Source of the DNA: a virus
Lineage: Duplodnaviria; Heunggongvirae; Uroviricota; Caudoviricetes
Length of the DNA: 64,000 bases
Strand: one strand, 5' to 3'
Virus record (IMG/VR): IMGVR_UViG_2778261035_000005
The position numbers and the translations under genes are program-made. Below the pieces are notes generated by a model. It was not told where the DNA came from. It searched no databases and was given only the letters and a program-made list of their open reading frames with translations. Positions 11,824 to 63,106 of the stretch are shown here, piece by piece (within the stretch, counting starts at the first letter, position 1; each line of letters begins with the position of its first letter).

Positions 11824-12345
11824 TTATTCTTCGAACAATTTTTCGATAGATTTTGTAGGATAGAACAAAGAACGCTCGTTGTTACCAACCAGCTGGATAA
11901 AGCCTAAACTTTTATAAAACGCCTTGGCTTTGTCATTTAACGCCTCAACGAAAAGTCCATGAATGCCTACAGCAAGAGATGCATTGTACACAACGCGCAT
12001 TGCATGTGTTACAAGCATTGAGCCAAATCCTTGACCTTGAAGGGACTTGTCCAAAGCCAGCCTACCCAAAGTAACACTTGGAACATTCCGATAAGGTACC
12101 TTCTTTTGCTGGCTTCTTGAAGGTAAGGACTCCTTTTCAAAGCAGCTACCTGACAAAGTGTAATACCCTAACACTTTTGGTCTGCCTTCTTTCGTGCAAA
12201 GCACATAAGCGCGAAGAATTTTTCCCTCATGCTGCCTTTTTAAGTGGTTGGTTAAAAAGGCATTTAGTGATTCTTCACCGCAATCAAAACCATTCAAATC
12301 ATAATCTTTCTCTCCAGAGAAAATTTCTATCTTTATATTATCCAC
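11824..12345 (-). CDS. GNAT-family acetyltransferase toxin (TacT/AtaT/KacT-like)
   Basis: 173 aa with GNAT-toxin layout (FDCG...YYTLS...VTLGRLALD...QGFG...FY...GF); GTG start 7 nt after the stop of the upstream antitoxin gene. Confidence 0.8.
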   Translation of the reverse strand: MDNIKIEIFSGEKDYDLNGFDCGEESLNAFLTNHLKRQHEGKILRAYVLCTKEGRPKVLGYYTLSGSCFEKESLPSRSQQKKVPYRNVPSVTLGRLALDKSLQGQGFGSMLVTHAMRVVYNASLAVGIHGLFVEALNDKAKAFYKSLGFIQLVGNNERSLFYPTKSIEKLFEE

Positions 12346-12352
12346 GAGTAAA

Positions 12353-12622
12353 CTACTCCATGCTTTTCAGACGATCAGCAGCTCGTTTCAGCTTGTCGTT
12401 CGGTGCCGGAGGATTGCTTATAGCGTCCATAACCAGATTCCAGGATTCTTCATTCAGAACTAGTCTACGGTGTTGCTCTATAACTTTCACGGCACGTTCA
12501 GATGCACTGCTAACCATAAACTGAGTAATGCTCTGGTTAGACATTGCGGCAGCTTCCTCGATGATGCTTTTATCGTCATCGGTTAATCTCAAATCGATGC
12601 GCTGCTTTTTTAGTGCTGACAT
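12353..12622 (-). CDS. DUF1778-type ribbon-helix-helix antitoxin (TacA/AtaR-like)
   Basis: 89 aa immediately upstream of the GNAT toxin on the same strand; ATG at 12622 preceded by AGGAGG. Confidence 0.75.
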   Translation of the reverse strand: MSALKKQRIDLRLTDDDKSIIEEAAAMSNQSITQFMVSSASERAVKVIEQHRRLVLNEESWNLVMDAISNPPAPNDKLKRAADRLKSME

Positions 12623-12632
12623 GTATTCCTCC

Positions 12633-12660
12633 TGATGGCCGTGATGTAGGAAGGCCATCA
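12633..12660. promoter_or_regulatory. Palindrome TGATGGCC-N12-GGCCATCA, candidate toxin-antitoxin operator
   Basis: Perfect 8-bp inverted arms overlapping the RBS/promoter region of the antitoxin gene. Confidence 0.4.
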
Positions 12661-12890
12661 ATCTCCTCTGTTCAAACTGAGTTTTCGACTCAAAAATTAC
12701 TTTAAAAGGCTATAGCCCATTACGTGTGCATTATCAAATTGTGTACGGCATATCACCGTACTTGTAATATAGAGGTCATTGTTACTTTTTTCAACAGACA
12801 AATACAAGCTATGATTGCCAATTGTTAATCACAACCTACCATTTAACCTTTACACCGCAGCCGTAGGCATTTAGGCTATATCACATATAA

Positions 12891-12940: not shown

Positions 12941-13609
12941 ATGACCAAGATCTTTGTGGTTGGCGGCACAAAGGGCGGGCCTGGCAAATCCACCGTTGCC
13001 CAGCAAATTGCCGTTTGCCTGAAAGTCAAAAAGAAGAAGAAGGTTTATATCACTGATATAGATATTCAGCGCACGACAACAAGCTGGTGTGAAGACCGTC
13101 GACAGAACGAAGACCTTGAGCTGATTCCTTTTGCATACGTTCAGGATGACATCATTAAGCACCTAAAATCGCTTCAGGGTAGAGCTGAGTTTGTAGTGGT
13201 AGATGCTGGTGGCTTTGACTCCGAAATTCAGCGACAAGCGATGCTGATGGCCGACGTTATCATTATCCCGCTTCGTCCTAAGCGTCGTGATTTGAAATCT
13301 CTGCGTGACATCGATCCTATTATCGACAATGTTCGTAATGTAAACGATAAAGTGAAGGTCCGCGCGGTCATGAACCAGTGCCCGGCTTTGCCATCACAAG
13401 TGTCTCGCATTCTGGCGGCTAAAGAGATTGTCGAGACGTTTGGCATCGAGTCTGCGCCAGTCAATCTATATAACCGCAACGTCTACGATGATGCGGAAGA
13501 GTCTGGTCGTTCTATCTTTGAAATGACCGGTAGCGAGCGCGACAAAAAGGCGGAAGCCGAGTTTGAAGAATTTGTAGATTATCTGTTGAGTCTGGAGGAA
13601 GAAGAATAA
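12941..13609 (+). CDS. parA: ParA-type partition ATPase
   Basis: Deviant Walker A GGTKGGPGKST at the N-terminus; about 220 aa; followed by a small centromere-binding-type gene. Confidence 0.85.
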   Translation: MTKIFVVGGTKGGPGKSTVAQQIAVCLKVKKKKKVYITDIDIQRTTTSWCEDRRQNEDLELIPFAYVQDDIIKHLKSLQGRAEFVVVDAGGFDSEIQRQAMLMADVIIIPLRPKRRDLKSLRDIDPIIDNVRNVNDKVKVRAVMNQCPALPSQVSRILAAKEIVETFGIESAPVNLYNRNVYDDAEESGRSIFEMTGSERDKKAEAEFEEFVDYLLSLEEEE

Positions 13610-13968
13610 TGTCCATGAAAATGGGTGACCTAGCAAAGCGCAAAGAGCCTGATGCACCGGCCAAGAACACAACTCCTTTGCGCCAACCAGTCAGACCACA
13701 GGGACGCCCGACTCGTGGCAAAGAGAAAATTAAAAGCCGCACAATGTCACTGGAAGACGAATACTTCGAACTGCTGGAGATGATGAAGTTCATCCCTCGC
13801 TTCGAGAAATTCACCCGCTCTGATGTGATTCGTGCTGCTATTTTCCATCTTGCGGAGAAGACACCGCAGGAAATCGAGGACATCGTAAAGCTGAACGAGG
13901 CGATCACAGCTGCCGATGTCACGATGCGTACCGATGAAATTAAACGCGAGTTGATGAAGAAAGGTTAA
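13609..13968 (+). CDS. ParG-like small centromere-binding protein
   Basis: 119 aa with basic disordered N-terminus and ribbon-helix-helix-like C-terminus; start overlaps the parA stop. Confidence 0.5.
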   Translation: MSMKMGDLAKRKEPDAPAKNTTPLRQPVRPQGRPTRGKEKIKSRTMSLEDEYFELLEMMKFIPRFEKFTRSDVIRAAIFHLAEKTPQEIEDIVKLNEAITAADVTMRTDEIKRELMKKG

Positions 13969-24888: not shown

Positions 24889-24963
24889 GATGGTGTAGCT
24901 CAGCGGTAGAGCAGTTGGCTGTTAACCAACTGGTCGGTGGTTCGAATCCACCCACCATCGCCA
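24889..24963 (+). tRNA. tRNA-Asn (anticodon GUU)
   Basis: Hand-folded cloverleaf: acceptor GATGGTG/CACCATC, D-arm GCTCAGCGGTAGAGC, anticodon loop CTGTTAA, T-loop TTCGAAT, 3-prime CCA. Confidence 0.8.
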
Positions 24964-24965
24964 AT

Positions 24966-25041
24966 GCCGGTTTAGCTCAGTTGGTAGAGCACCTGCCTTG
25001 TAAGCAGGATGTCAGCGGTTCGAATCCGTTAACCGGCACCA
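24966..25041 (+). tRNA. tRNA-Thr (anticodon UGU)
   Basis: Acceptor GCCGGTT/AACCGGC, D-arm GCTCAGTTGGTAGAGC, anticodon loop CTTGTAA, T-loop TTCGAAT, 3-prime CCA. Confidence 0.8.
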
Positions 25042-25254
25042 ACACAACAGGAAAGAGCATTGAGAACCGCCGAGACTGCCCTGTTTGAAGCGTAAGTCCG
25101 TGCAAACGTCATACAGTGCTCTTTTCGTTGTGGTGAATGCGGCTAAGCGCACGCGGGGAAATGGTTATATTGATCCTTTGTGATGACTATTGGCTCCGTC
25201 CACGGTGGATAACCAGCCAAAGGACACCGGGAAGCACCCGGCACCACAACAATT

Positions 25255-25341
25255 GGAGAGTAGGGAGCATGGTGCTCAAGCGGTCTTGAAAACCGTCCCA
25301 TTGCGCAAGCGATGATGGTTCGATTCCATTACTCTCCGCCA
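25255..25341 (+). tRNA. tRNA-Ser (anticodon UGA), type II with long variable arm
   Basis: Acceptor GGAGAGT/ACTCTCC, anticodon loop CTTGAAA, variable-arm hairpin GCGCAAGCG, T-loop TTCGATT, 3-prime CCA. Confidence 0.65.
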
Positions 25342-25525: not shown

Positions 25526-26806
25526 TTAATTAAAACCGAATGAATCAAGTTCTGCTTTTAATTTATCGACCATTTTTTCAACTTCAACCACAATTTCGCC
25601 AATCACCTTTTCTTTGTGTTGATTAGAGCTAAGTTCAAAATAGGCGTTATATAACGCATAACGAGACAGAAAATTTCTAATCTCATTAGCGGGTCTAATG
25701 GTGTAGCCATCGGTTAACACGATATCGGTCTGTCTAGAGTGCTTCTCGTTGAGTTTTATTAGCCGCTTTATCTGTTTTTCATCCTTGAGCACTATCACTT
25801 TGTTAGCTGCAATTTCAAGCTCCCAGCCGACAAAATAACGCAGCGTAGAATTTAATTTAGCCACTTCCTCGGCTGCAATTTCCATTTTCAGCTCAATGTA
25901 GTTTCGCATATGCATAGGTAGGTCATTAAATCTTTGCAGCAAATGTTGTCGGCAGGGGTTGTTGTAAGACCAAAGAACTGCAAACGTAAGCCTATGATAA
26001 CAGCTTATCGCATTGGTATTACAGGCCGAATCACCAACAATCATGCGATCAACATAAAACTCTACGTCTTTTTGGTATTCTTTATTGAATATATCAGCGG
26101 CATAGGTGTCCAGGTAATGAACTTTAGATATTGCATCTTCAAAGAAAAGTTCATTTTCGAAGAAGTTGTATTTGTTCAGGAGACGATAAAGTTTCTTTGC
26201 GTCGTAGGTTTTGCTATTGTCGACATTAAGACCAAAAATAGCAATCAGCAGACTTACTTTTGGACTAATGCTGTTGCGCAGTTGTTCTATGTAAGATCTC
26301 TTTTCACTATCCGCAGATGACGGCAGATAGAAGTCTTTATCTACATAATTTAGAATTAAAATAATGTGGTTAACATACTTAATATAAACAGGGTTTTTTG
26401 TTGCATAGTAATAAACGCCCTTGACGACTTTTATATTCAATTTCAAATTGTACTGACTATCATCCAGTAAGGTTTTGTTAACATCCTCAAGTAATTTATT
26501 ATGCTGTTCAAGTAATATGCCGTACCATTCCTTAAAAGAAGATTTTTTCATTTCAAGAAGCGAAGCCGCCGTCAGCCTGGTCGCTCTCATTGCCGCCTTT
26601 GCACTATGCCTTGCCTCATAAGCGGCCCATGCTGTGGCTAAAAAGGCAAGTGAAGTAGCAAGCGTACCTATAACCTCTACGTTTTCCTTGACGGTATCCC
26701 AGAAAATAATCATCACTGTCCCAAGTATGAGGATTAACAAAACAGGCATTTTATCAGTGTCTTTGGTTAATTTTGAAACTGAATGATACCTAATCGACCA
26801 TACCAT
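25526..26806 (-). CDS. Hypothetical membrane-anchored protein
   Basis: Up to 426 aa; two N-terminal TM helices and a ~350-aa cytoplasmic domain with no motif I can place; AT-rich codon usage; start may be 26749 instead. Confidence 0.55.
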   Translation of the reverse strand: MVWSIRYHSVSKLTKDTDKMPVLLILILGTVMIIFWDTVKENVEVIGTLATSLAFLATAWAAYEARHSAKAAMRATRLTAASLLEMKKSSFKEWYGILLEQHNKLLEDVNKTLLDDSQYNLKLNIKVVKGVYYYATKNPVYIKYVNHIILILNYVDKDFYLPSSADSEKRSYIEQLRNSISPKVSLLIAIFGLNVDNSKTYDAKKLYRLLNKYNFFENELFFEDAISKVHYLDTYAADIFNKEYQKDVEFYVDRMIVGDSACNTNAISCYHRLTFAVLWSYNNPCRQHLLQRFNDLPMHMRNYIELKMEIAAEEVAKLNSTLRYFVGWELEIAANKVIVLKDEKQIKRLIKLNEKHSRQTDIVLTDGYTIRPANEIRNFLSRYALYNAYFELSSNQHKEKVIGEIVVEVEKMVDKLKAELDSFGFN

Positions 26807-37691: not shown

Positions 37692-38675
37692 CTATCTTGA
37701 ATTAGGGGCTTTCTCTATAATTATTCGATTCAGAATATGATTACGATCACTGTATGGTTCGAAATGTTCTGCAATCGAGTATGAACCGACACTACGTGCG
37801 ACCACATCTTCAAAATATTCAAGGATTTTAGGTAGATACTTTTCATAATTTTGTGAACAAATCGACACTACAGGATCGAATTCTACTAATCGACGCTTTA
37901 CACGTATATGGTTATTTATTTTTTCATATTCATTCATCATAGAGTTCAAGTCTGGTACTACCCGCTCAGGGCTACACAGGTAGGTGCTGCGGTCATACTC
38001 GTCTCCGAATTTATCAAGAGGAACACCTATCTCTAGCAACGTCTTGTTTACTCGCTTTGCAAGCTCAATTATCTCTTTATCTTCTTCTGTAAGCCACATG
38101 TCGACCCACTTTTGTTTGTCTGCCCATTCAGACAGATAATCATCCTTATTGAAAGTTACAGGAGCACATCCAGAGTCACTTCTTAATGCTTTATCCTTTA
38201 TTTTAGAAATTGTTTTTTTATCTAAATGCTTCCAATAAATAGCAGGTTCGTCTAATTCATTATCATCGTGTAGGCATATCAAAACAATTACCACAGGAAA
38301 ATCACAACTTCCCCAATAGGTTATATTTTTATAAGGTATTTGTACGCTTAACCTTCTCTTCATTTTGCGTGAGGTGGTTTTTATCTGAACGCCGATAAAA
38401 AAACCTGTCGAAAGATTATTTTCATATATTTCAACCTGAGCATCCAATCCCATATCAATATCTAGCAATCGACAAGGCCATCTGAAATAACGAGAAATCC
38501 AATAGGCAAACAAGTACTCTCCAGCGTGTCCATCCGCACTGGTTTTCGGATATGTCATACCTTCAGTTTTATTCTTTTCTGCCGCTGGCTTTACAGACTT
38601 AGCTTTTGGGGGGAGGGCTGTTTTTTTAGTCGGCACTGACTTTGTTGCTTTGACTTGTTTGTTAGCCTTATCCAT
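37692..38675 (-). CDS. DUF4365-like protein (predicted PD-(D/E)xK-type fold), candidate defence gene
   Basis: GEYLFAYWISRYFRWPCRLLDIDMGLDAQVEIYENNLSTGFFIGVQIKTTS fits the DUF4365 pattern; Lys-rich N-terminus; ATG at 38675 preferred over the TTG at 38690. Confidence 0.55.
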   Translation of the reverse strand: MDKANKQVKATKSVPTKKTALPPKAKSVKPAAEKNKTEGMTYPKTSADGHAGEYLFAYWISRYFRWPCRLLDIDMGLDAQVEIYENNLSTGFFIGVQIKTTSRKMKRRLSVQIPYKNITYWGSCDFPVVIVLICLHDDNELDEPAIYWKHLDKKTISKIKDKALRSDSGCAPVTFNKDDYLSEWADKQKWVDMWLTEEDKEIIELAKRVNKTLLEIGVPLDKFGDEYDRSTYLCSPERVVPDLNSMMNEYEKINNHIRVKRRLVEFDPVVSICSQNYEKYLPKILEYFEDVVARSVGSYSIAEHFEPYSDRNHILNRIIIEKAPNSR

Positions 38676-38818
38676 TGGTTTTATTCTCAATTTGCTTTGC
38701 TCGGTGTGCCTCCTGATTCTGCACCTTAGCGCCGATACTGTCTACCGCCAATCATGACAGTAAAGCTCTATTTGTTTGATATAATCAGATACACGAAAGT
38801 AAGTTTGAGCATATCAAT

Positions 38819-44937: not shown

Positions 44938-45269
44938 AGACCATCCCATTCGCGCTGTTGTTTCTTTCTTCGATCGTTGTGGCCGACACCACTGTTTATC
45001 AGTGTGAAATGTCTGTAGCCGACGTTAAGAATGGCGCTCTTACCGACGTCATAAAAGCACCATATGGAGCGATGGTCGTAGACAGCGGCGACCAGTTCTA
45101 TGTTGTGCGTGACGATCGAGTGTTGTCATCCCCATATCTCACAAATCGTAATGGCAAATTAACCGGCGTCGGAGAAGACCACTTCGTATACAACAAATAC
45201 AAGGGCTTCTATGGCGTTCACGCTTCTCAGCAAAGCTACCTTTTCGATGACTGCAAGGAGGTTGGGTAA
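44934..45269 (+). CDS. Secreted hypothetical protein
   Basis: N-terminal signal peptide MKTIPFALLFLSSIVVA. Confidence 0.5.
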   Translation: MKTIPFALLFLSSIVVADTTVYQCEMSVADVKNGALTDVIKAPYGAMVVDSGDQFYVVRDDRVLSSPYLTNRNGKLTGVGEDHFVYNKYKGFYGVHASQQSYLFDDCKEVG

Positions 45270-45481
45270 TGGCATTAACACTGGCAGGTCTGGAAATCGA
45301 GAAAACAAGCGGCTACTGGCGTGCTAAGGGTTTCAAGCAGCCTGGCATTCTTGAGCGTCTGGAACGTGAAGATGGGTATATCGTCCACCAGCGGCGTGAA
45401 TGGCGTATGTACGATCCAGAAACAGGAAAACTGACTACAAAAGCCGGAACACTTTGGGGTCTGTTAAAGAAAATACACTAA
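45269..45481 (+). CDS. Hypothetical small protein
   Basis: 70-aa ORF with start overlapping the preceding stop. Confidence 0.4.
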   Translation: MALTLAGLEIEKTSGYWRAKGFKQPGILERLEREDGYIVHQRREWRMYDPETGKLTTKAGTLWGLLKKIH

Positions 45482-45527
45482 ATGCAAACTGACTGCGGCA
45501 CGTTCCGCAGTCATATTTCATAGTCGT

Positions 45528-46061
45528 CACCGCTGACAGCATACACAATCAACTACCGCTGATAGCATATCGAGAGTCTATCTCACCGCTCACAGCATAC
45601 TTTACTCGATTTTTTACCGCTGACAGCATACTTAAGACATTGCATGAATAATGTGTACCGGTATGGGTATAACCAGAACAAAATTACCGCTGGCAGCATA
45701 CGAATGTCTGACATATGCCATTAATTACCGCTGATAGCATATCCAAACAAAAATTCCTCAATAAAACACCGCTGACAGCATACGTTCTATCAGGGAGTAG
45801 CAGGCAATAAATGCCTTTCACTACAAGCAATCAGCGCAATAGCAATAGAATGTTAGTGAGCGCAAACCTATATGGAATGCACTCTTCGAGGTTAGTAACC
45901 ACTGGGGAGGTATGACAGAGCATTGAGTGGTGATAGATGATTTACCGCTCACAGCATACGTTCATCTCACTATACCGCTGGTAGCATATCTTTAACCGTT
46001 CACAGCATACTTTTCAGAAAAATAGCCGCTGATAGCATACATTTCACCGCTGACAGCATAT
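45528..46061. repeat. Iteron array (12 copies of about 18 bp, consensus TTACCGCTGACAGCATAC) downstream of rep
   Basis: Copies at 45528, 45553, 45583, 45614, 45684, 45725, 45767, 45942, 45972, 45993, 46023, 46044; spacings mostly near multiples of about 10.5 bp. Confidence 0.85.
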
Positions 46062-47155
46062 CAAAGCAGTTTGAGACTATTGGAAAGGATCTCAATCATC
46101 TTGATATTTTCAGGCGTCAAATTCTGCGAAAGTTCGGTTATCTTGTTGATAATGTTCTGTTTGGCATCAATTTCCCCAGCTTTCTCATCTGGTTTTTTGG
46201 GTTCGATGTCTTCAGGTTTTGGCGGTGCGACTTTGAGTTTTGGATTGCGGCTGTGAATCTGGATATAGATCGACCGCCCACGCTTAATCTCGCTGTATTC
46301 GAGATAGCCCAAATCTTGGAGAGCTTTTAAGCCGTTACGTATAGTCTGATTCTGCGAGCTGACATTCCTGCTACTCAAATTGAGTCGCGCACGCAATCGA
46401 GCAAGCGATACCGGCGCAGGCTTGGTTGGAAGACTTTCGATGAAGGTGTACAGAGCCTGTGCTGTTTCTTTGCGTGGTAGCTTATTGATAACCTTTAACT
46501 GCAAAAGAACCTTATGGTCAAAGCGATATAGTTCGGCCAGCTTCGGTTCTGCATAGAACACCACCGTATCTTTCTGCTCGTTGTAGTCCACGCTATTGAT
46601 GAGGTGCACCATCAGAAGCGAGATCTTGTTAGAGCCGTCGACGTTCTTTTCTTCATACGTTCTCTGGAAAGACAGAGTTGTACGCATGATCTTCAAAAGA
46701 CTGTTTGTAAGCCGGTCGCGGAGTGTTTTGCGGATCTGTGACGATGGATAGCCACAAAACTTAGCAAATTTCGTGATGCTTAACTCGACACGACCGTTAG
46801 GTTCGCCGTATTCTGCCAGCGAACGCACAACGCCCACCCACGTTTTGAAATCATGATCCATGTCGAGACGAGGACCGGTTATCTTGATATCGGAATAGCC
46901 TTCAGAACGGGCTACTTCGAGCTGGACAAGCTCCTTTGAAGCATCGATCTCATTTGGCTTGTTACGTTTACTGTATTTTGTTCCCTTAAGCGTGGGGACG
47001 AACAACCCCAGTCGCATCAACGCAATTGGTTGGACTGTATTGTTGCTATTAGGGACAAGTTCCCCTGTGTACAATTCAAGGGAACCTTCTTCAAAGTTGT
47101 CGATGTTATCTTCTACTTCTTTGTTATTTTTACCTTTTTTATTTTTTGTGGACAT
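46061..47155 (-). CDS. Iteron-binding plasmid replication initiator (RepA/RepE-like)
   Basis: 364-aa basic protein flanked on both sides by its iterons; ATG at 47155 after an AAAGG RBS preferred over the track start, which would include promoter iterons. Confidence 0.7.
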   Translation of the reverse strand: MSTKNKKGKNNKEVEDNIDNFEEGSLELYTGELVPNSNNTVQPIALMRLGLFVPTLKGTKYSKRNKPNEIDASKELVQLEVARSEGYSDIKITGPRLDMDHDFKTWVGVVRSLAEYGEPNGRVELSITKFAKFCGYPSSQIRKTLRDRLTNSLLKIMRTTLSFQRTYEEKNVDGSNKISLLMVHLINSVDYNEQKDTVVFYAEPKLAELYRFDHKVLLQLKVINKLPRKETAQALYTFIESLPTKPAPVSLARLRARLNLSSRNVSSQNQTIRNGLKALQDLGYLEYSEIKRGRSIYIQIHSRNPKLKVAPPKPEDIEPKKPDEKAGEIDAKQNIINKITELSQNLTPENIKMIEILSNSLKLL

Positions 47156-47173
47156 GTGGACACCTTTGTCATT

Positions 47174-47278
47174 CAACCGCTGACAGCATACTTGATTTGC
47201 CGCTGACAGAATACCAAAAACAGTTGGCAGCATACGGTGAACCGCTGACAGACTATCAATTACCGCTGACAGCATACA
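47174..47278. repeat. Iteron array (4 full copies plus one partial) in the rep promoter region
   Basis: Same consensus as the downstream array; copies at 47174, 47197, 47239, 47261 and a partial at 47223. Confidence 0.8.
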
Positions 47279-47324
47279 TGAACATGACTTCAGACCAGTC
47301 GTGGCGCGGCTTACAGCGATCGGG

Positions 47325-47390
47325 GATCTTATTTGATCTATATAAGGATCTATCTATGGATCTCTTTATTAGGATCTATCCTGTGGATAT
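47325..47390. promoter_or_regulatory. Origin-type region: five GATC sites plus a DnaA-box-like sequence
   Basis: GATC at 47325, 47335, 47347, 47359, 47373 (10-14 bp apart), then TGTGGATAT at 47382-47390 (8 of 9 to the DnaA box consensus). Confidence 0.6.
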
Positions 47391-47476
47391 GTGAATAATT
47401 AAAACAGGCATTTACTACCTTCGGCGCACCTGGTGGGTTATCGTTGCCTCGGCTAACAATCACAGAAAAATGACAT

Positions 47477-48121
47477 ATGGATCTAAAACGCACGCGCTGG
47501 GTTCGTCGTCTTGAAGACGGCTCCTACACTATCGAATCAAATTCCAACCTGAATAAGCAGAAGTTGCTTTGTGACATCTGCGGTATAGCGGCGAAGTGCC
47601 CGATCTACGAAACCAGAATTAAACTTGATAAGGCTGGTGTGAATTTTCATTTAAACAGTTGCATCAGGTACGTTCCATTACTCGCATTTCGTAAACCGAT
47701 CATCGGATTGGATGCTCCCTACTTCAACACACTCCGTTCAGGTGTGACGTGGCGAGATCGTTTATCACCAGACAAGCTGATTTGCCTCGTATCCGCAGAC
47801 ACAGGGAAAATCATCCGTTTTGGGAAAGTAGACAAGGTTTACTCAGGCCCAGTAGACGAAATGTTGCGGAAACACAGCCGGTTTAATCATCTCTGTATGG
47901 GTGGTGAGAAAATCGAGAAGGTAGAAGAAGTGATCCGCAAATCCTACGGACACTTTCTGACCAAAGATAGCCTGCTCACCGCAATCTACATCAGACATGT
48001 AAAACGTGAGTTCGACCTCGAATACCACAGCGAAGAAGAGCTTAACCTTGTTGACCCACGTCCAAAAGCTGGCGTCATAAGCATAAACGCAGCGCGTAAA
48101 AAGCCCACTGACGCGCTGTAA
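47477..48121 (+). CDS. Hypothetical protein
   Basis: 214-aa ORF adjacent to the origin region; no recognisable motif. Confidence 0.45.
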   Translation: MDLKRTRWVRRLEDGSYTIESNSNLNKQKLLCDICGIAAKCPIYETRIKLDKAGVNFHLNSCIRYVPLLAFRKPIIGLDAPYFNTLRSGVTWRDRLSPDKLICLVSADTGKIIRFGKVDKVYSGPVDEMLRKHSRFNHLCMGGEKIEKVEEVIRKSYGHFLTKDSLLTAIYIRHVKREFDLEYHSEEELNLVDPRPKAGVISINAARKKPTDAL

Positions 48122-62512: not shown

Positions 62513-63106
62513 ATGATTGCAGCCGAAAAAATCAAACAGCGAAAGCGCGACAACTCTCTTCGTGACCTCTGGAGAACACCTGATTGGCTGTTTTCTGCCA
62601 TTCAACGTTATCTTGGAGTGACATTTGATGTTGACGTTGCCTGCAACAAGGACAACGCAAAGCTGCCTAATTTCATAGGCATTGAGCGTGATGCTTTGAA
62701 ATCTGAATGGGGACAGCCAGGTACAATTGCCTTCCTCAATCCACCCTACTCCAAAATCTCCCCCTGGATTGATGCTGCTATACGTGAGCAGGCTCGCGGA
62801 GTTACAACAGTGATGCTAATTCCTCAATCCCTCGATACAAAGTGGTATGAGCGTGCAACAGAGTATGCGAATGAGACGATTATTCTGTCTGGTGGCCGCG
62901 TAGCGTTTGTCGAGCCTGACGTAAATCTGGGTCAGGTAGAAGTAAACATCAACCCAGGTGGCAGTATGCTCGTTGTTTTTCGAGGATTCTGTCAGGACGC
63001 TGGGCACTCTATAAGCAAGATCCCTTTGGACGTCATGAAAAGTCTGGGAGGGTATGATCCTGCGAATGTGATCAGGAAAAAAAGACCATCAAAGAAGGCT
63101 GCTTAG
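62513..63106 (+). CDS. Phage-type DNA N6-adenine methyltransferase (Dam-like)
   Basis: WRTPDWLF, FDVDVACN and catalytic NPPY in the order typical of phage N6A methyltransferases; no adjacent restriction gene. Confidence 0.75.
   Translation: MIAAEKIKQRKRDNSLRDLWRTPDWLFSAIQRYLGVTFDVDVACNKDNAKLPNFIGIERDALKSEWGQPGTIAFLNPPYSKISPWIDAAIREQARGVTTVMLIPQSLDTKWYERATEYANETIILSGGRVAFVEPDVNLGQVEVNINPGGSMLVVFRGFCQDAGHSISKIPLDVMKSLGGYDPANVIRKKRPSKKAA

Follow-up and report, generated by a model that had tools for sequence, protein, structure and literature searches.

A complete iteron-type plasmid replicon of the P1 RepA/RepFIB family in a tailed-phage genome

The 64,000-nucleotide stretch of viral DNA analysed here (the window) contains a real and complete plasmid replication unit, consisting of a rep gene and the repeats around it. 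It very probably maintains, as a plasmid, a phage-plasmid of the SSU5 supergroup (pECOH89/p09EL50 lineage; replicon type IncFIB(H89-PhagePlasmid)) and represents an orthologous variant of the oriR-repA-incA replicon of P1 and the RepFIB replicon of F. Judging from the sequence comparisons, the link to the P1 replicon goes beyond mere resemblance and is one of homology. The replicon spans 45527-47398 and comprises a minus-strand rep gene with 12 iterons downstream and five upstream, a GC-rich spacer, six GATC sites, and two DnaA boxes (Table 1). A complete iteron replicon with P1-like organisation had been proposed in a previous sequence-only reading; the homology of Rep and the alignment of the origin to the annotated oriR of P1 both agree with it. 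That reading was correct, the replicon type was already known, and the element is not new. Our literature search found no experiment on this particular replicon.

Anatomy of the replicon

The 18-bp iteron TTACCGCTGACAGCATAC, searched with up to three mismatches, gave 14 matches in the window, all on the plus strand and all within 45527-47277, against a shuffle expectation of 0.04. A scan with a 14-bp core yielded three further copies, raising the total to 17 (0.04 expected by chance). These scans recover the same count that had been read by eye from the letters, namely 12 downstream iterons and four plus a partial one upstream. The third upstream copy is degenerate; we count it as the fifth origin iteron because it keeps the 21-bp register and has a degenerate counterpart at the matching position of the 85%-identical Klebsiella replicon. 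The helical phasing claimed for the repeats holds for most spacings (21, 30, 31, and 41 bp) but fails for those of 26, 70, and 176 bp. Five direct iterons of about 19 bp just upstream of rep at two-helical-turn phasing, a second array directly downstream of rep (an incA-type control locus), and DnaA boxes with an AT-rich GATC cluster and a GC-rich spacer outside the origin iterons are traits of P1 RepA/RepFIB replicons, and the window has them all.

Table 1. Features of the replicon and of other maintenance and replication genes in the window
Feature	Coordinates	Strand	Remarks
Terminator-like hairpin, bidirectional	45490..45513	.	9-pair stem, 6 G-C pairs; closes the upstream cra-like gene
Control array (incA-like), distal block	45527..45783	-	7 direct iterons; start-to-start 26, 30, 31, 70, 41, 41
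Non-iteron spacer between the two blocks	45784..45941	.	158 bp, GC 0.44
Control array, proximal block	45942..46061	-	5 direct iterons; spacings 30, 21, 30, 21
Downstream iteron starts	45527, 45553, 45583, 45614, 45684, 45725, 45766, 45942, 45972, 45993, 46023, 46044		12 copies
rep (repA)	46061..47155	-	364-aa initiator, P1 RepA/RepFIB family, predicted iteron-binding
Candidate weak tandem DnaA boxes (tentative)	47147..47163	-	GTGTCCACA + ATGTCCACA, 7/9 each; overlap rep RBS and start codon
Origin (incC-like) iterons	47174..47277	-	five copies, spacings 23, 21, 21, 21 bp
Upstream iteron starts	47174, 47197, 47218, 47239, 47260		5 copies, four good, one degenerate
GC-rich spacer	47278..47317	-	GC 0.55; contains GCCGCGCCACG, common to P1 oriR
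AT-rich GATC region	47318..47381	-	GC 0.34; repeats of (A/T)AGATCC type with six GATC; predicted site of unwinding and of Dam/SeqA control
GATC sites	47318, 47325, 47335, 47347, 47359, 47373		six within 59 bp
Tandem DnaA boxes	47382..47398	-	outer edge of origin; aligns with annotated 18-bp DnaA site of P1 oriR
Toxin-antitoxin pair	11824..12661	-	GNAT acetyltransferase toxin 11824-12345; TacA-family antitoxin ORF 12353-12661
Partition genes	12941..13968	+	32 kb from replicon; small ParA ATPase 12941-13609, 119-aa partner 13609-13968
N6-adenine DNA methyltransferase	62513..63106	+	PGAP name in colinear plasmid; PHROG 111, E 2.8e-65

At the outer end of the origin, the GATC cluster is the densest of the window (6 per 100 bp; the runner-up has 3). 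Both the cluster and a near-consensus DnaA box had been noticed before, with the numbers set too low: there are six GATC sites instead of five, and two DnaA boxes in tandem instead of one. The inner box (ATATCCACA, 47382-47390, minus strand) matches at 8/9 positions, and the outer box (TTATTCACA, 47390-47398, minus strand) is an exact match to TTWTNCACA. Since this second box occupies 47390-47398, the replicon ends at 47398 and not, as first delimited, at 47390. At the other side, the replicon cassette is bounded on the left by the hairpin listed in Table 1, and megablast homology to phage Cyrano ends at about 45481. The candidate weak DnaA boxes at the rep start have a counterpart in the Klebsiella ortholog, GTATCCACA (8/9) in the matching place; in P1, CTATCCACA lies between the iterons and repA.

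The origin iteron region likely doubles as the rep promoter/operator. A promoter scan found nothing on the rep strand, its overall count being the same as in shuffles, and a relaxed promoter scan (at least 8/12) also found nothing. The best sigma-70 match within the origin iterons is weak (7/12; TTGGTA-N18-AAGTAT, 47217-47188), and we propose it as a candidate promoter because of its positional analogy with PrepA of P1. Downstream, the rep-proximal iteron shares 1 nt with the rep stop codon. The 158-bp spacer that divides the control array has no Rfam match and is not conserved in the Klebsiella relative. An Rfam E-value scan of 45200-47700 found no RNA family, so nothing in this region points to control by an antisense RNA. 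Within rep, 46809-46822 resembles an inverted iteron with three mismatches; we took it as a chance match because comparable three-mismatch matches occur elsewhere in the window.

The initiator, its host element, and distribution

The rep ORF runs from 46061 to 47275 (404 aa). The start of the gene is likely the ATG at 47155, which has AAGGTG ahead of it and agrees with the PhiR41_1 annotation and with the Klebsiella ortholog. A comparison with the Rep_3/RepFIB families, which the sequence-only reading had suggested as a check, bears out the proposed affiliation: Rep matches Pfam Rep3_N (PF01051, WH1) above the gathering threshold (37.5 bits vs a cutoff of 22.4, E 3.9e-9, residues 118-239) and PHROG 775 (E 5e-133). 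By BLASTP it is 46% identical to P1 RepA across nearly the entire P1 protein (residues 20-284 of 286, E 3e-86), and 52% identical to RepA of F RepFIB (E 2e-110), the closest classical Rep, in a match that includes part of the C-terminal tail. Its family is settled by this homology to P1 RepA and RepFIB. NCBIfam gave no match for Rep, and PDB sequence searches (phmmer and a 6-sequence profile) gave nothing meaningful. An hhalign comparison with RepE of F was weak (3.9% probability), and a single-sequence AlphaFold2 model had a mean pLDDT of 40, which is too low for reading a WH1 + WH2 fold.

The window combines phage and plasmid traits, with a tail tip protein J and a tail fibre alongside Rep and ParA, and is colinear with circular plasmids of about 110 kb and with pWP4-S18-ESBL-07_2. 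The plasmid-prophage lifestyle suggested earlier fits the joint presence of phage tail genes, ParA, and a toxin-antitoxin pair, as well as the exclusively plasmid location of the replicon in complete Escherichia coli genomes, where it occurs in 119 of 5,426, at 184 plasmid places and no chromosomal one. Such persistence is no discovery, as it is already established for SSU5-group phage-plasmids. The small ParA is backed by Pfam (MipZ/AAA_31/CbiA/ParA) and by PHROG 164 (ParA-like, E 4e-51), but its supposed ParG partner is not: the 119-aa protein has no Pfam match and no detectable ParG signature, and matches only phrog_5111. No convincing repeats that could form a partition centromere were found near parA. 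Domain matches likewise identify the toxin-antitoxin pair as TacA/GNAT (antitoxin to TacA1, E 8.6e-26; PGAP calls it at 12353-12622). The predicted N6-adenine methyltransferase encoded by the element is possibly relevant to the GATC cluster. Also encoded are a DnaB-like helicase, a primase, DnaE, a gp32-like SSB, and a ligase, so that part of the replication may be independent of this origin.

In PLSDB the replicon is present in 203 plasmids, mostly of about 110 kb and non-mobilizable; MOB-suite assigns rep_cluster_488 to these plasmids as their sole replicon. Across 115 complete genomes the replicon region is 98-100% identical. Derivatives in E. albertii (62-64 kb) contain IS elements and fall about 45 kb short of the ~108-kb element; they retain rep, ParA, and the toxin-antitoxin pair.

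Proposed mode of action and alternatives

By homology with P1 we infer binding, unwinding, methylation dependence, autoregulation, and handcuffing for this replicon. RepA monomers would occupy the five origin iterons while host DnaA would bind the tandem boxes, and together they would open the adjacent AT-rich GATC region, where the host replisome would be loaded. The six GATC sites would make firing dependent on Dam methylation and, through sequestration of the hemimethylated origin by SeqA, may limit re-initiation. From the origin iterons RepA probably represses the promoter of its own gene, and the 12 downstream iterons (45527-46061) would keep the copy number low through titration of RepA and through handcuffing with the origin iterons. 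P1, SSU5, and F RepFIB have other iteron sequences, so the replicon presumably has its own specificity and could coexist with all three. It seems unlikely that the split and polymorphic array of 12 direct iterons and the RepFIB-type tail of Rep form a tunable copy-number switch, with the 158-bp insert as a possible unrecognised regulator; if they did, gain or loss of iterons would alter the gene dosage of the phage-plasmid, including its resistance cargo, or would govern when plasmid replication gives way to lytic replication.

One may ask whether the Rep/iteron origin also, or even mainly, drives lytic (vegetative) replication, and not only low-copy maintenance. The full phage replisome of the element needs an entry point and the window showed no separate origin for lytic growth; nevertheless we hold this to be improbable, given that oriR of P1, the closest characterised homologue, is annotated as a plasmid replication origin, and that 12 negative-control iterons, DnaA boxes, and a GATC cluster are marks of restrained replication. 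Lytic growth of P1 uses a separate origin, oriL with RepL. That the shortened E. albertii derivatives have kept the replicon argues against a lytic role and equally against its being a relic on an element whose plasmid state is maintained by another system. Plasmids often contain multiple replicons, but a relic is very unlikely in view of the intact rep ORF, the near-identity of the region among complete genomes, the single MOB-suite assignment, and the co-evolution of iterons with Rep.

The direct repeats could also be seen as att or recombination sites at prophage ends, since the record of the Klebsiella phage pJN2-26 (GenBank MZ779062) names two repeats attL and attR, or as the partition centromere, none having been found beside parA. 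Both ideas have next to no probability: seventeen copies flank a RepA homologue in the incC + incA layout of P1, the element is never chromosomal, and the par genes are 32 kb distant.

Taken as a plasmid-maintenance replicon, the element is of value mainly for annotation and epidemiology, and our understanding of iteron replicons and phage-plasmids is unchanged. The replicon is a marker of a phage-plasmid family common in E. coli and Shigella; about 2% of complete E. coli genomes have it, and some members carry ESBL genes (e.g. blaCTX-M-15 on pECOH89). The base-level map of origin and iterons explains compatibility with co-resident IncFIB plasmids and P1, and corrects public annotations that have an over-long rep CDS, a 'replication helicase' label, or iterons entered as attL/attR. 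It also defines a fragment that vectors, or tools for displacing these elements by curing or incompatibility, could be built on.

Comparison with related replicons

There is no substantial difference from the replicons of pECOH89, p09EL50, PhiR41_1, and CMS-2020a, all within what replicon typing of SSU5-group phage-plasmids terms IncFIB. The replicon DNA is 100% identical to that of p09EL50 and others, 99.3% to that of phage PhiR41_1, and 99.7-100% to that of CMS-2020a across the aligned part; the RepA of pECOH89 is identical to that of p09EL50. Upstream, p09EL50 has three extra genes. The near-identical PhiR41_1, deposited as a phage with host MG1655, has 9 control iterons vs 12, an 87-bp iteron-to-iteron deletion having removed three copies of the distal block.

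In SSU5, pHCM2, and Cyrano (pLF82) the replicon occupies the equal backbone slot, between the cra-like gene and a conserved 214-aa gene, has the same architecture, and encodes a Rep whose long C-terminal tail runs 45-55 residues past the end of P1 RepA. However, Rep is only 48% identical to that of the window, the iterons differ (AACCACTGTAGAGAGTAG), and some downstream copies are inverted; in SSU5 the origin is tandemly duplicated. Cyrano is kept as a plasmid at about 5.5 copies per chromosome and yields virions after ciprofloxacin induction. The 214-aa gene (47477-48121) is a conserved backbone gene of the SSU5 supergroup; we rejected it as a replicon accessory common with F RepFIB, because it is without similarity to the 213-aa ORF beside the latter. 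Klebsiella pJN2-26 has an 85% identical Rep and the iteron of the window; its four rep-proximal control iterons and their spacing are conserved, and its DnaA/GATC/GC-spacer segment is 77% identical. Iterons co-vary with Rep, those of P1, JK004, and SSU5 (45-48% Rep identity) being different, and the window iteron is absent from P1, SSU5, JK004, F, and pAA-09EL50.

RepFIB of F resembles the replicon of the window in its head of DnaA boxes and GATC sites, located upstream of the iterons, and in having iterons on both sides of repA. Its iterons, of the (A/G)TAA(G/A)CTGT type, are unlike those of the window, and its host element is a conjugative plasmid and not a phage-plasmid. RepFIB relatives occur on at least 5,000 plasmids in PLSDB. 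E. coli O104:H4 2009EL-2050 has both p09EL50 and an IncFIB plasmid, which implies that the two are compatible.

P1, likewise a plasmid prophage, has a phage backbone unrelated to the SSU5-like siphovirus backbone of the window, and in P1 parA follows incA whereas here the par genes are not adjacent to the replicon. Rep is longer than P1 RepA by 12 residues at the N-terminus and by about 55 at the C-terminus. The iteron letters differ (GTATGCTGTCAGCGGTAA in the window, ATGTGTGCTGGAGGGAAA in P1), and so do the control arrays: 12 iterons here, all direct and in two blocks 158 bp apart, vs 9 in P1 (3 direct, 6 inverted). The order of elements is nevertheless common to both, from tandem DnaA boxes through GATC repeats, a GC-rich spacer, and five 21-bp-phased iterons to repA and the control array. 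The latter begins at the rep stop codon in both (copy 9 of P1 incA likewise abuts it), with spacings of 30, 31, and 41 bp in both. The origin iterons equal those of the annotated P1 incC in number (five, about 21 bp) and phasing, and the segment with DnaA boxes, GATC sites, and GC spacer matches P1 oriR at 87 of 124 positions (70% identity), its GATC region aligning with the five annotated Dam sites of P1 though six GATC are present here. Counted from the outer DnaA box, the replicon analysed here has DnaA at 1-17, GATC at 23-78, and iterons at 122-225; the experimentally annotated oriR of P1 has them at 1-18, 24-78, and 118-221.

The replicon and its initiator

On the evidence of its sequence, the element reads as a textbook iteron replicon of the RepFIB/P1 type, carried by a well-described family of phage-plasmids; it is already known. 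Its initiator, Rep, scores above the curated threshold of Pfam Rep3_N (37.5 bits; threshold 22.4) and is 52% identical to the RepFIB RepA of the F plasmid (E 2e-110), in line with the Rep_3/RepFIB comparison proposed in the sequence-only reading. It is also a full-length homologue of P1 RepA (46% identity, E 3e-86, spanning P1 residues 20-284 of 286), and at least 5,000 PLSDB plasmids, for the most part of the IncF type and from E. coli and Klebsiella, carry relatives at about 50% identity. The C-terminal tail of about 55 aa (residues 310-364, window 46064-46228) consists of an acidic, proline-rich linker followed by helices at the very end; SSU5, a more distant phage-plasmid, has a RepA with a tail of comparable length, and F RepFIB RepA has part of it, whereas it is absent from RepA of P1 and of the Cronobacter replicon JK004. 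PHROG 775 and RefSeq phage records (NC_005856.1, NC_050152.1 and others) call the P1-type protein a 'replication helicase', but RepA is an initiator that binds the origin rather than a helicase.

The mechanical rep reading frame of 404 aa starts at 47275, inside an iteron; the PGAP call (46061-47275, minus strand) shares this start, which lies in origin iteron 1, and runs across the whole set of five. The alternative ATG at 47155, with AAGGTG just before it as ribosome-binding site, yields 364 aa and is the more plausible start because it agrees with the annotation of phage PhiR41_1 and with the start of the ortholog in Klebsiella phage pJN2-26.

Features of the replicon and its flanks (last two columns: numbering starts at the outer DnaA box; P1 values from the curated GenBank annotation)
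Feature	Window	Strand	Remarks	Window, from outer box	P1 oriR
cra-like gene (phrog_804)	45269-45481		flanks replicon		
Downstream (control) iterons	45527-46061		12 copies; motif and core scans		
rep	46061-47155	minus	364 aa		
Upstream (origin) iterons	47174-47277		5 copies, third degenerate; motif and core scans	122-225	118-221
GATC sites	47318-47376		six in 59 bp	23-78	24-78
DnaA box ATATCCACA	47382-47390	minus	tandem with second box		
DnaA box TTATTCACA	47390-47398	minus	exact match to TTWTNCACA		
DnaA boxes, both				1-17	1-18
214-aa cysteine-containing protein (phrog_2105)	47477-48121		flanks replicon		

A motif scan of the window for the iteron TTACCGCTGACAGCATAC, allowing up to three mismatches, returned 14 matches, all on the plus strand and all within 45527-47277, against a chance expectation of 0.04 from shuffles; a scan with the 14-bp core picked up three further degenerate copies. 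Together the two scans bear out the earlier count of 12 iterons downstream and four plus a partial one upstream, the partial one being the degenerate fifth copy. This third upstream copy is degenerate yet in exact 21-bp register, and a degenerate iteron occupies the same position in the Klebsiella replicon, both of which favour a fifth origin iteron over debris. Spacings near multiples of the helical turn, as had been claimed, hold for most intervals (21, 30, 31 and 41 bp) but not for three (26, 70 and 176 bp). The control array is plastic: relative to window 45530-45617, PhiR41_1 has an exact 87-bp iteron-to-iteron deletion that leaves 9 copies instead of 12, the three distal control iterons being gone, a polymorphism of the copy-control array that arose in nature or in the laboratory. 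In the pJN2-26 record (MZ779062), 20-bp direct repeats flanking rep (1378-1397 and 2648-2667) are labelled phage attR and attL; this is a mis-annotation, as they are RepA iterons.

Iteron specificity and the backbone slot

The iteron of the window is shared with the Klebsiella replicon, whose Rep is 85% identical, and is absent from P1, SSU5, JK004, F, and pAA-09EL50. Such a pattern would be expected of an initiator and its sites co-evolving to a new specificity, with the host-factor part of the origin kept. E. coli O104:H4 2009EL-2050 holds both p09EL50, which carries the replicon of the window, and pAA-09EL50, whose RepA is of the classical IncFIB type (49.8% identity) and whose iterons are different. 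These two replicons of the RepFIB family are apparently compatible, and their co-residence in one strain fits distinct iteron specificity.

The cra-like and 214-aa genes that flank the replicon are 80-86% conserved across the SSU5 supergroup (the latter over 838 plasmids), Y. pestis pMT1 included, while Rep between them falls to 48% identity in SSU5 and in Cyrano (pLF82). Conserved flanks around a divergent Rep point to exchange of the replicon, which looks like a cassette that occupies one constant site of the backbone.

The carrier phage-plasmid and the role of the replicon

The carrier is an SSU5-supergroup phage-plasmid, colinear over the window with the plasmid pWP4-S18-ESBL-07_2. Its replicon DNA is 100% identical to p09EL50 and many other plasmids of ~110 kb, and 99.3% identical to PhiR41_1. 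The window encodes a lambda-J-like tail tip protein, a tail fibre, a phage-type replisome (DnaB-like helicase, primase, DnaE, gp32-like SSB, RecA-like protein, and ligase), a tyrosine recombinase, a small ParA, a TacA/GNAT toxin-antitoxin pair, and a predicted N6-adenine methyltransferase. A cluster of three tRNAs (Asn-GTT, Thr-TGT, and Ser-TGA) lies at 24889-25341; the paper on pECOH89 lists tRNAs for Thr and Asn only. Two genes stand on the minus strand in an otherwise plus-strand backbone, one for a 426-aa protein that weakly matches putAbiC (abortive infection; gene at 25526-26806), the other for a DUF4365 protein (37692-38690), and are possible defence cargo.

The related plasmid pECOH89, which shares its RepA unchanged with p09EL50, was described in 2014; replicon typing schemes score the SSU5 group as IncFIB, and IncFIB(H89-PhagePlasmid) is routinely used as a label. 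Cyrano is kept as a plasmid at ~5.5 copies per chromosome and yields virions on ciprofloxacin induction. The literature searched gave no published base-level map of iterons and origin for this lineage, and the present one is helpful for annotation.

Of 5,426 complete E. coli genomes, 119 carry the replicon, with all 184 placements on plasmids and none chromosomal, which supports the plasmid-prophage lifestyle proposed from sequence alone. In E. albertii, from several wild-bird and human isolates, IS-ridden derivatives of 62-64 kb (p2014C-4015-1, 63.8 kb, and three more plasmids of ~62 kb) are smaller by ~45 kb than the ~108-kb element and retain rep, iterons, ParA, and the toxin-antitoxin pair. 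These natural derivatives hint that the replicon is enough for life as a plasmid; in the single record inspected, the first 50 kb list no tail genes. That the replicon is a relic is unlikely, since it is conserved, no other replicon is typed on these plasmids, and the shortened derivatives keep it. We also think it improbable that the origin doubles as a start site for lytic growth: the features of restrained replication and the precedent of P1 both speak against it.

Origin architecture and comparison with P1

The GATC cluster is the densest in the window (6 per 100 bp; next-best 3) and its repeat region is AT-rich (GC 0.34). It had been noticed earlier with five sites, one short of the actual number; likewise the single near-consensus DnaA box recognized then is one of a tandem pair, so that the element runs 8 bp past the end first assigned to it. 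A further pair of weak DnaA-like boxes possibly overlaps the start of rep. The promoter search gave only a weak TTGGTA-N18-AAGTAT, at the site corresponding to PrepA of P1.

Dam dependence, SeqA, chaperone activation, and handcuffing are established for P1. The anatomy was read directly, and from P1 we infer the following mechanism: RepA monomers would saturate the five origin iterons and DnaA would occupy the tandem boxes, the two jointly opening the AT-rich GATC repeats, whose clustering would tie firing to Dam methylation and SeqA sequestration. On the origin iterons RepA probably represses its own promoter, and the 12 downstream iterons would exert incA-type negative control by titration and handcuffing (iteron control in general is reviewed in PMC6090056).

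The origin segment (DnaA boxes, AGATCC-type repeats, CCGATCG, and the GC-rich GCCGCGCCACG spacer) is 70% identical to P1 oriR (87/124) and can be aligned to its equivalents in pJN2-26, SSU5, and JK004; F RepFIB has the same origin head. In SSU5 the whole head (DnaA box, GATC repeats, and iterons) is tandemly duplicated (1068-1300 and 1443-1700), and in the rep-proximal copy most GATC sites are eroded to GACC or GAAC. The alignment to oriR argues that the likeness to P1 reflects homology of the DNA as well. With RepA similarity and nearly the same geometry, the P1 RepA-type organisation first suggested for the window is upheld, and every criterion testable on sequence assigns the replicon to the P1 RepA/RepFIB family. 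In P1 and the window alike the control array starts at the rep stop codon with spacings of 30, 31, and 41 bp. The arrays differ in that P1 has 9 control iterons (3 direct, 6 inverted), whereas the 12 of the window are all direct and form two blocks with a 158-bp non-iteron stretch between them; the par genes, which adjoin the control array in P1, lie 32 kb from the replicon in the window.
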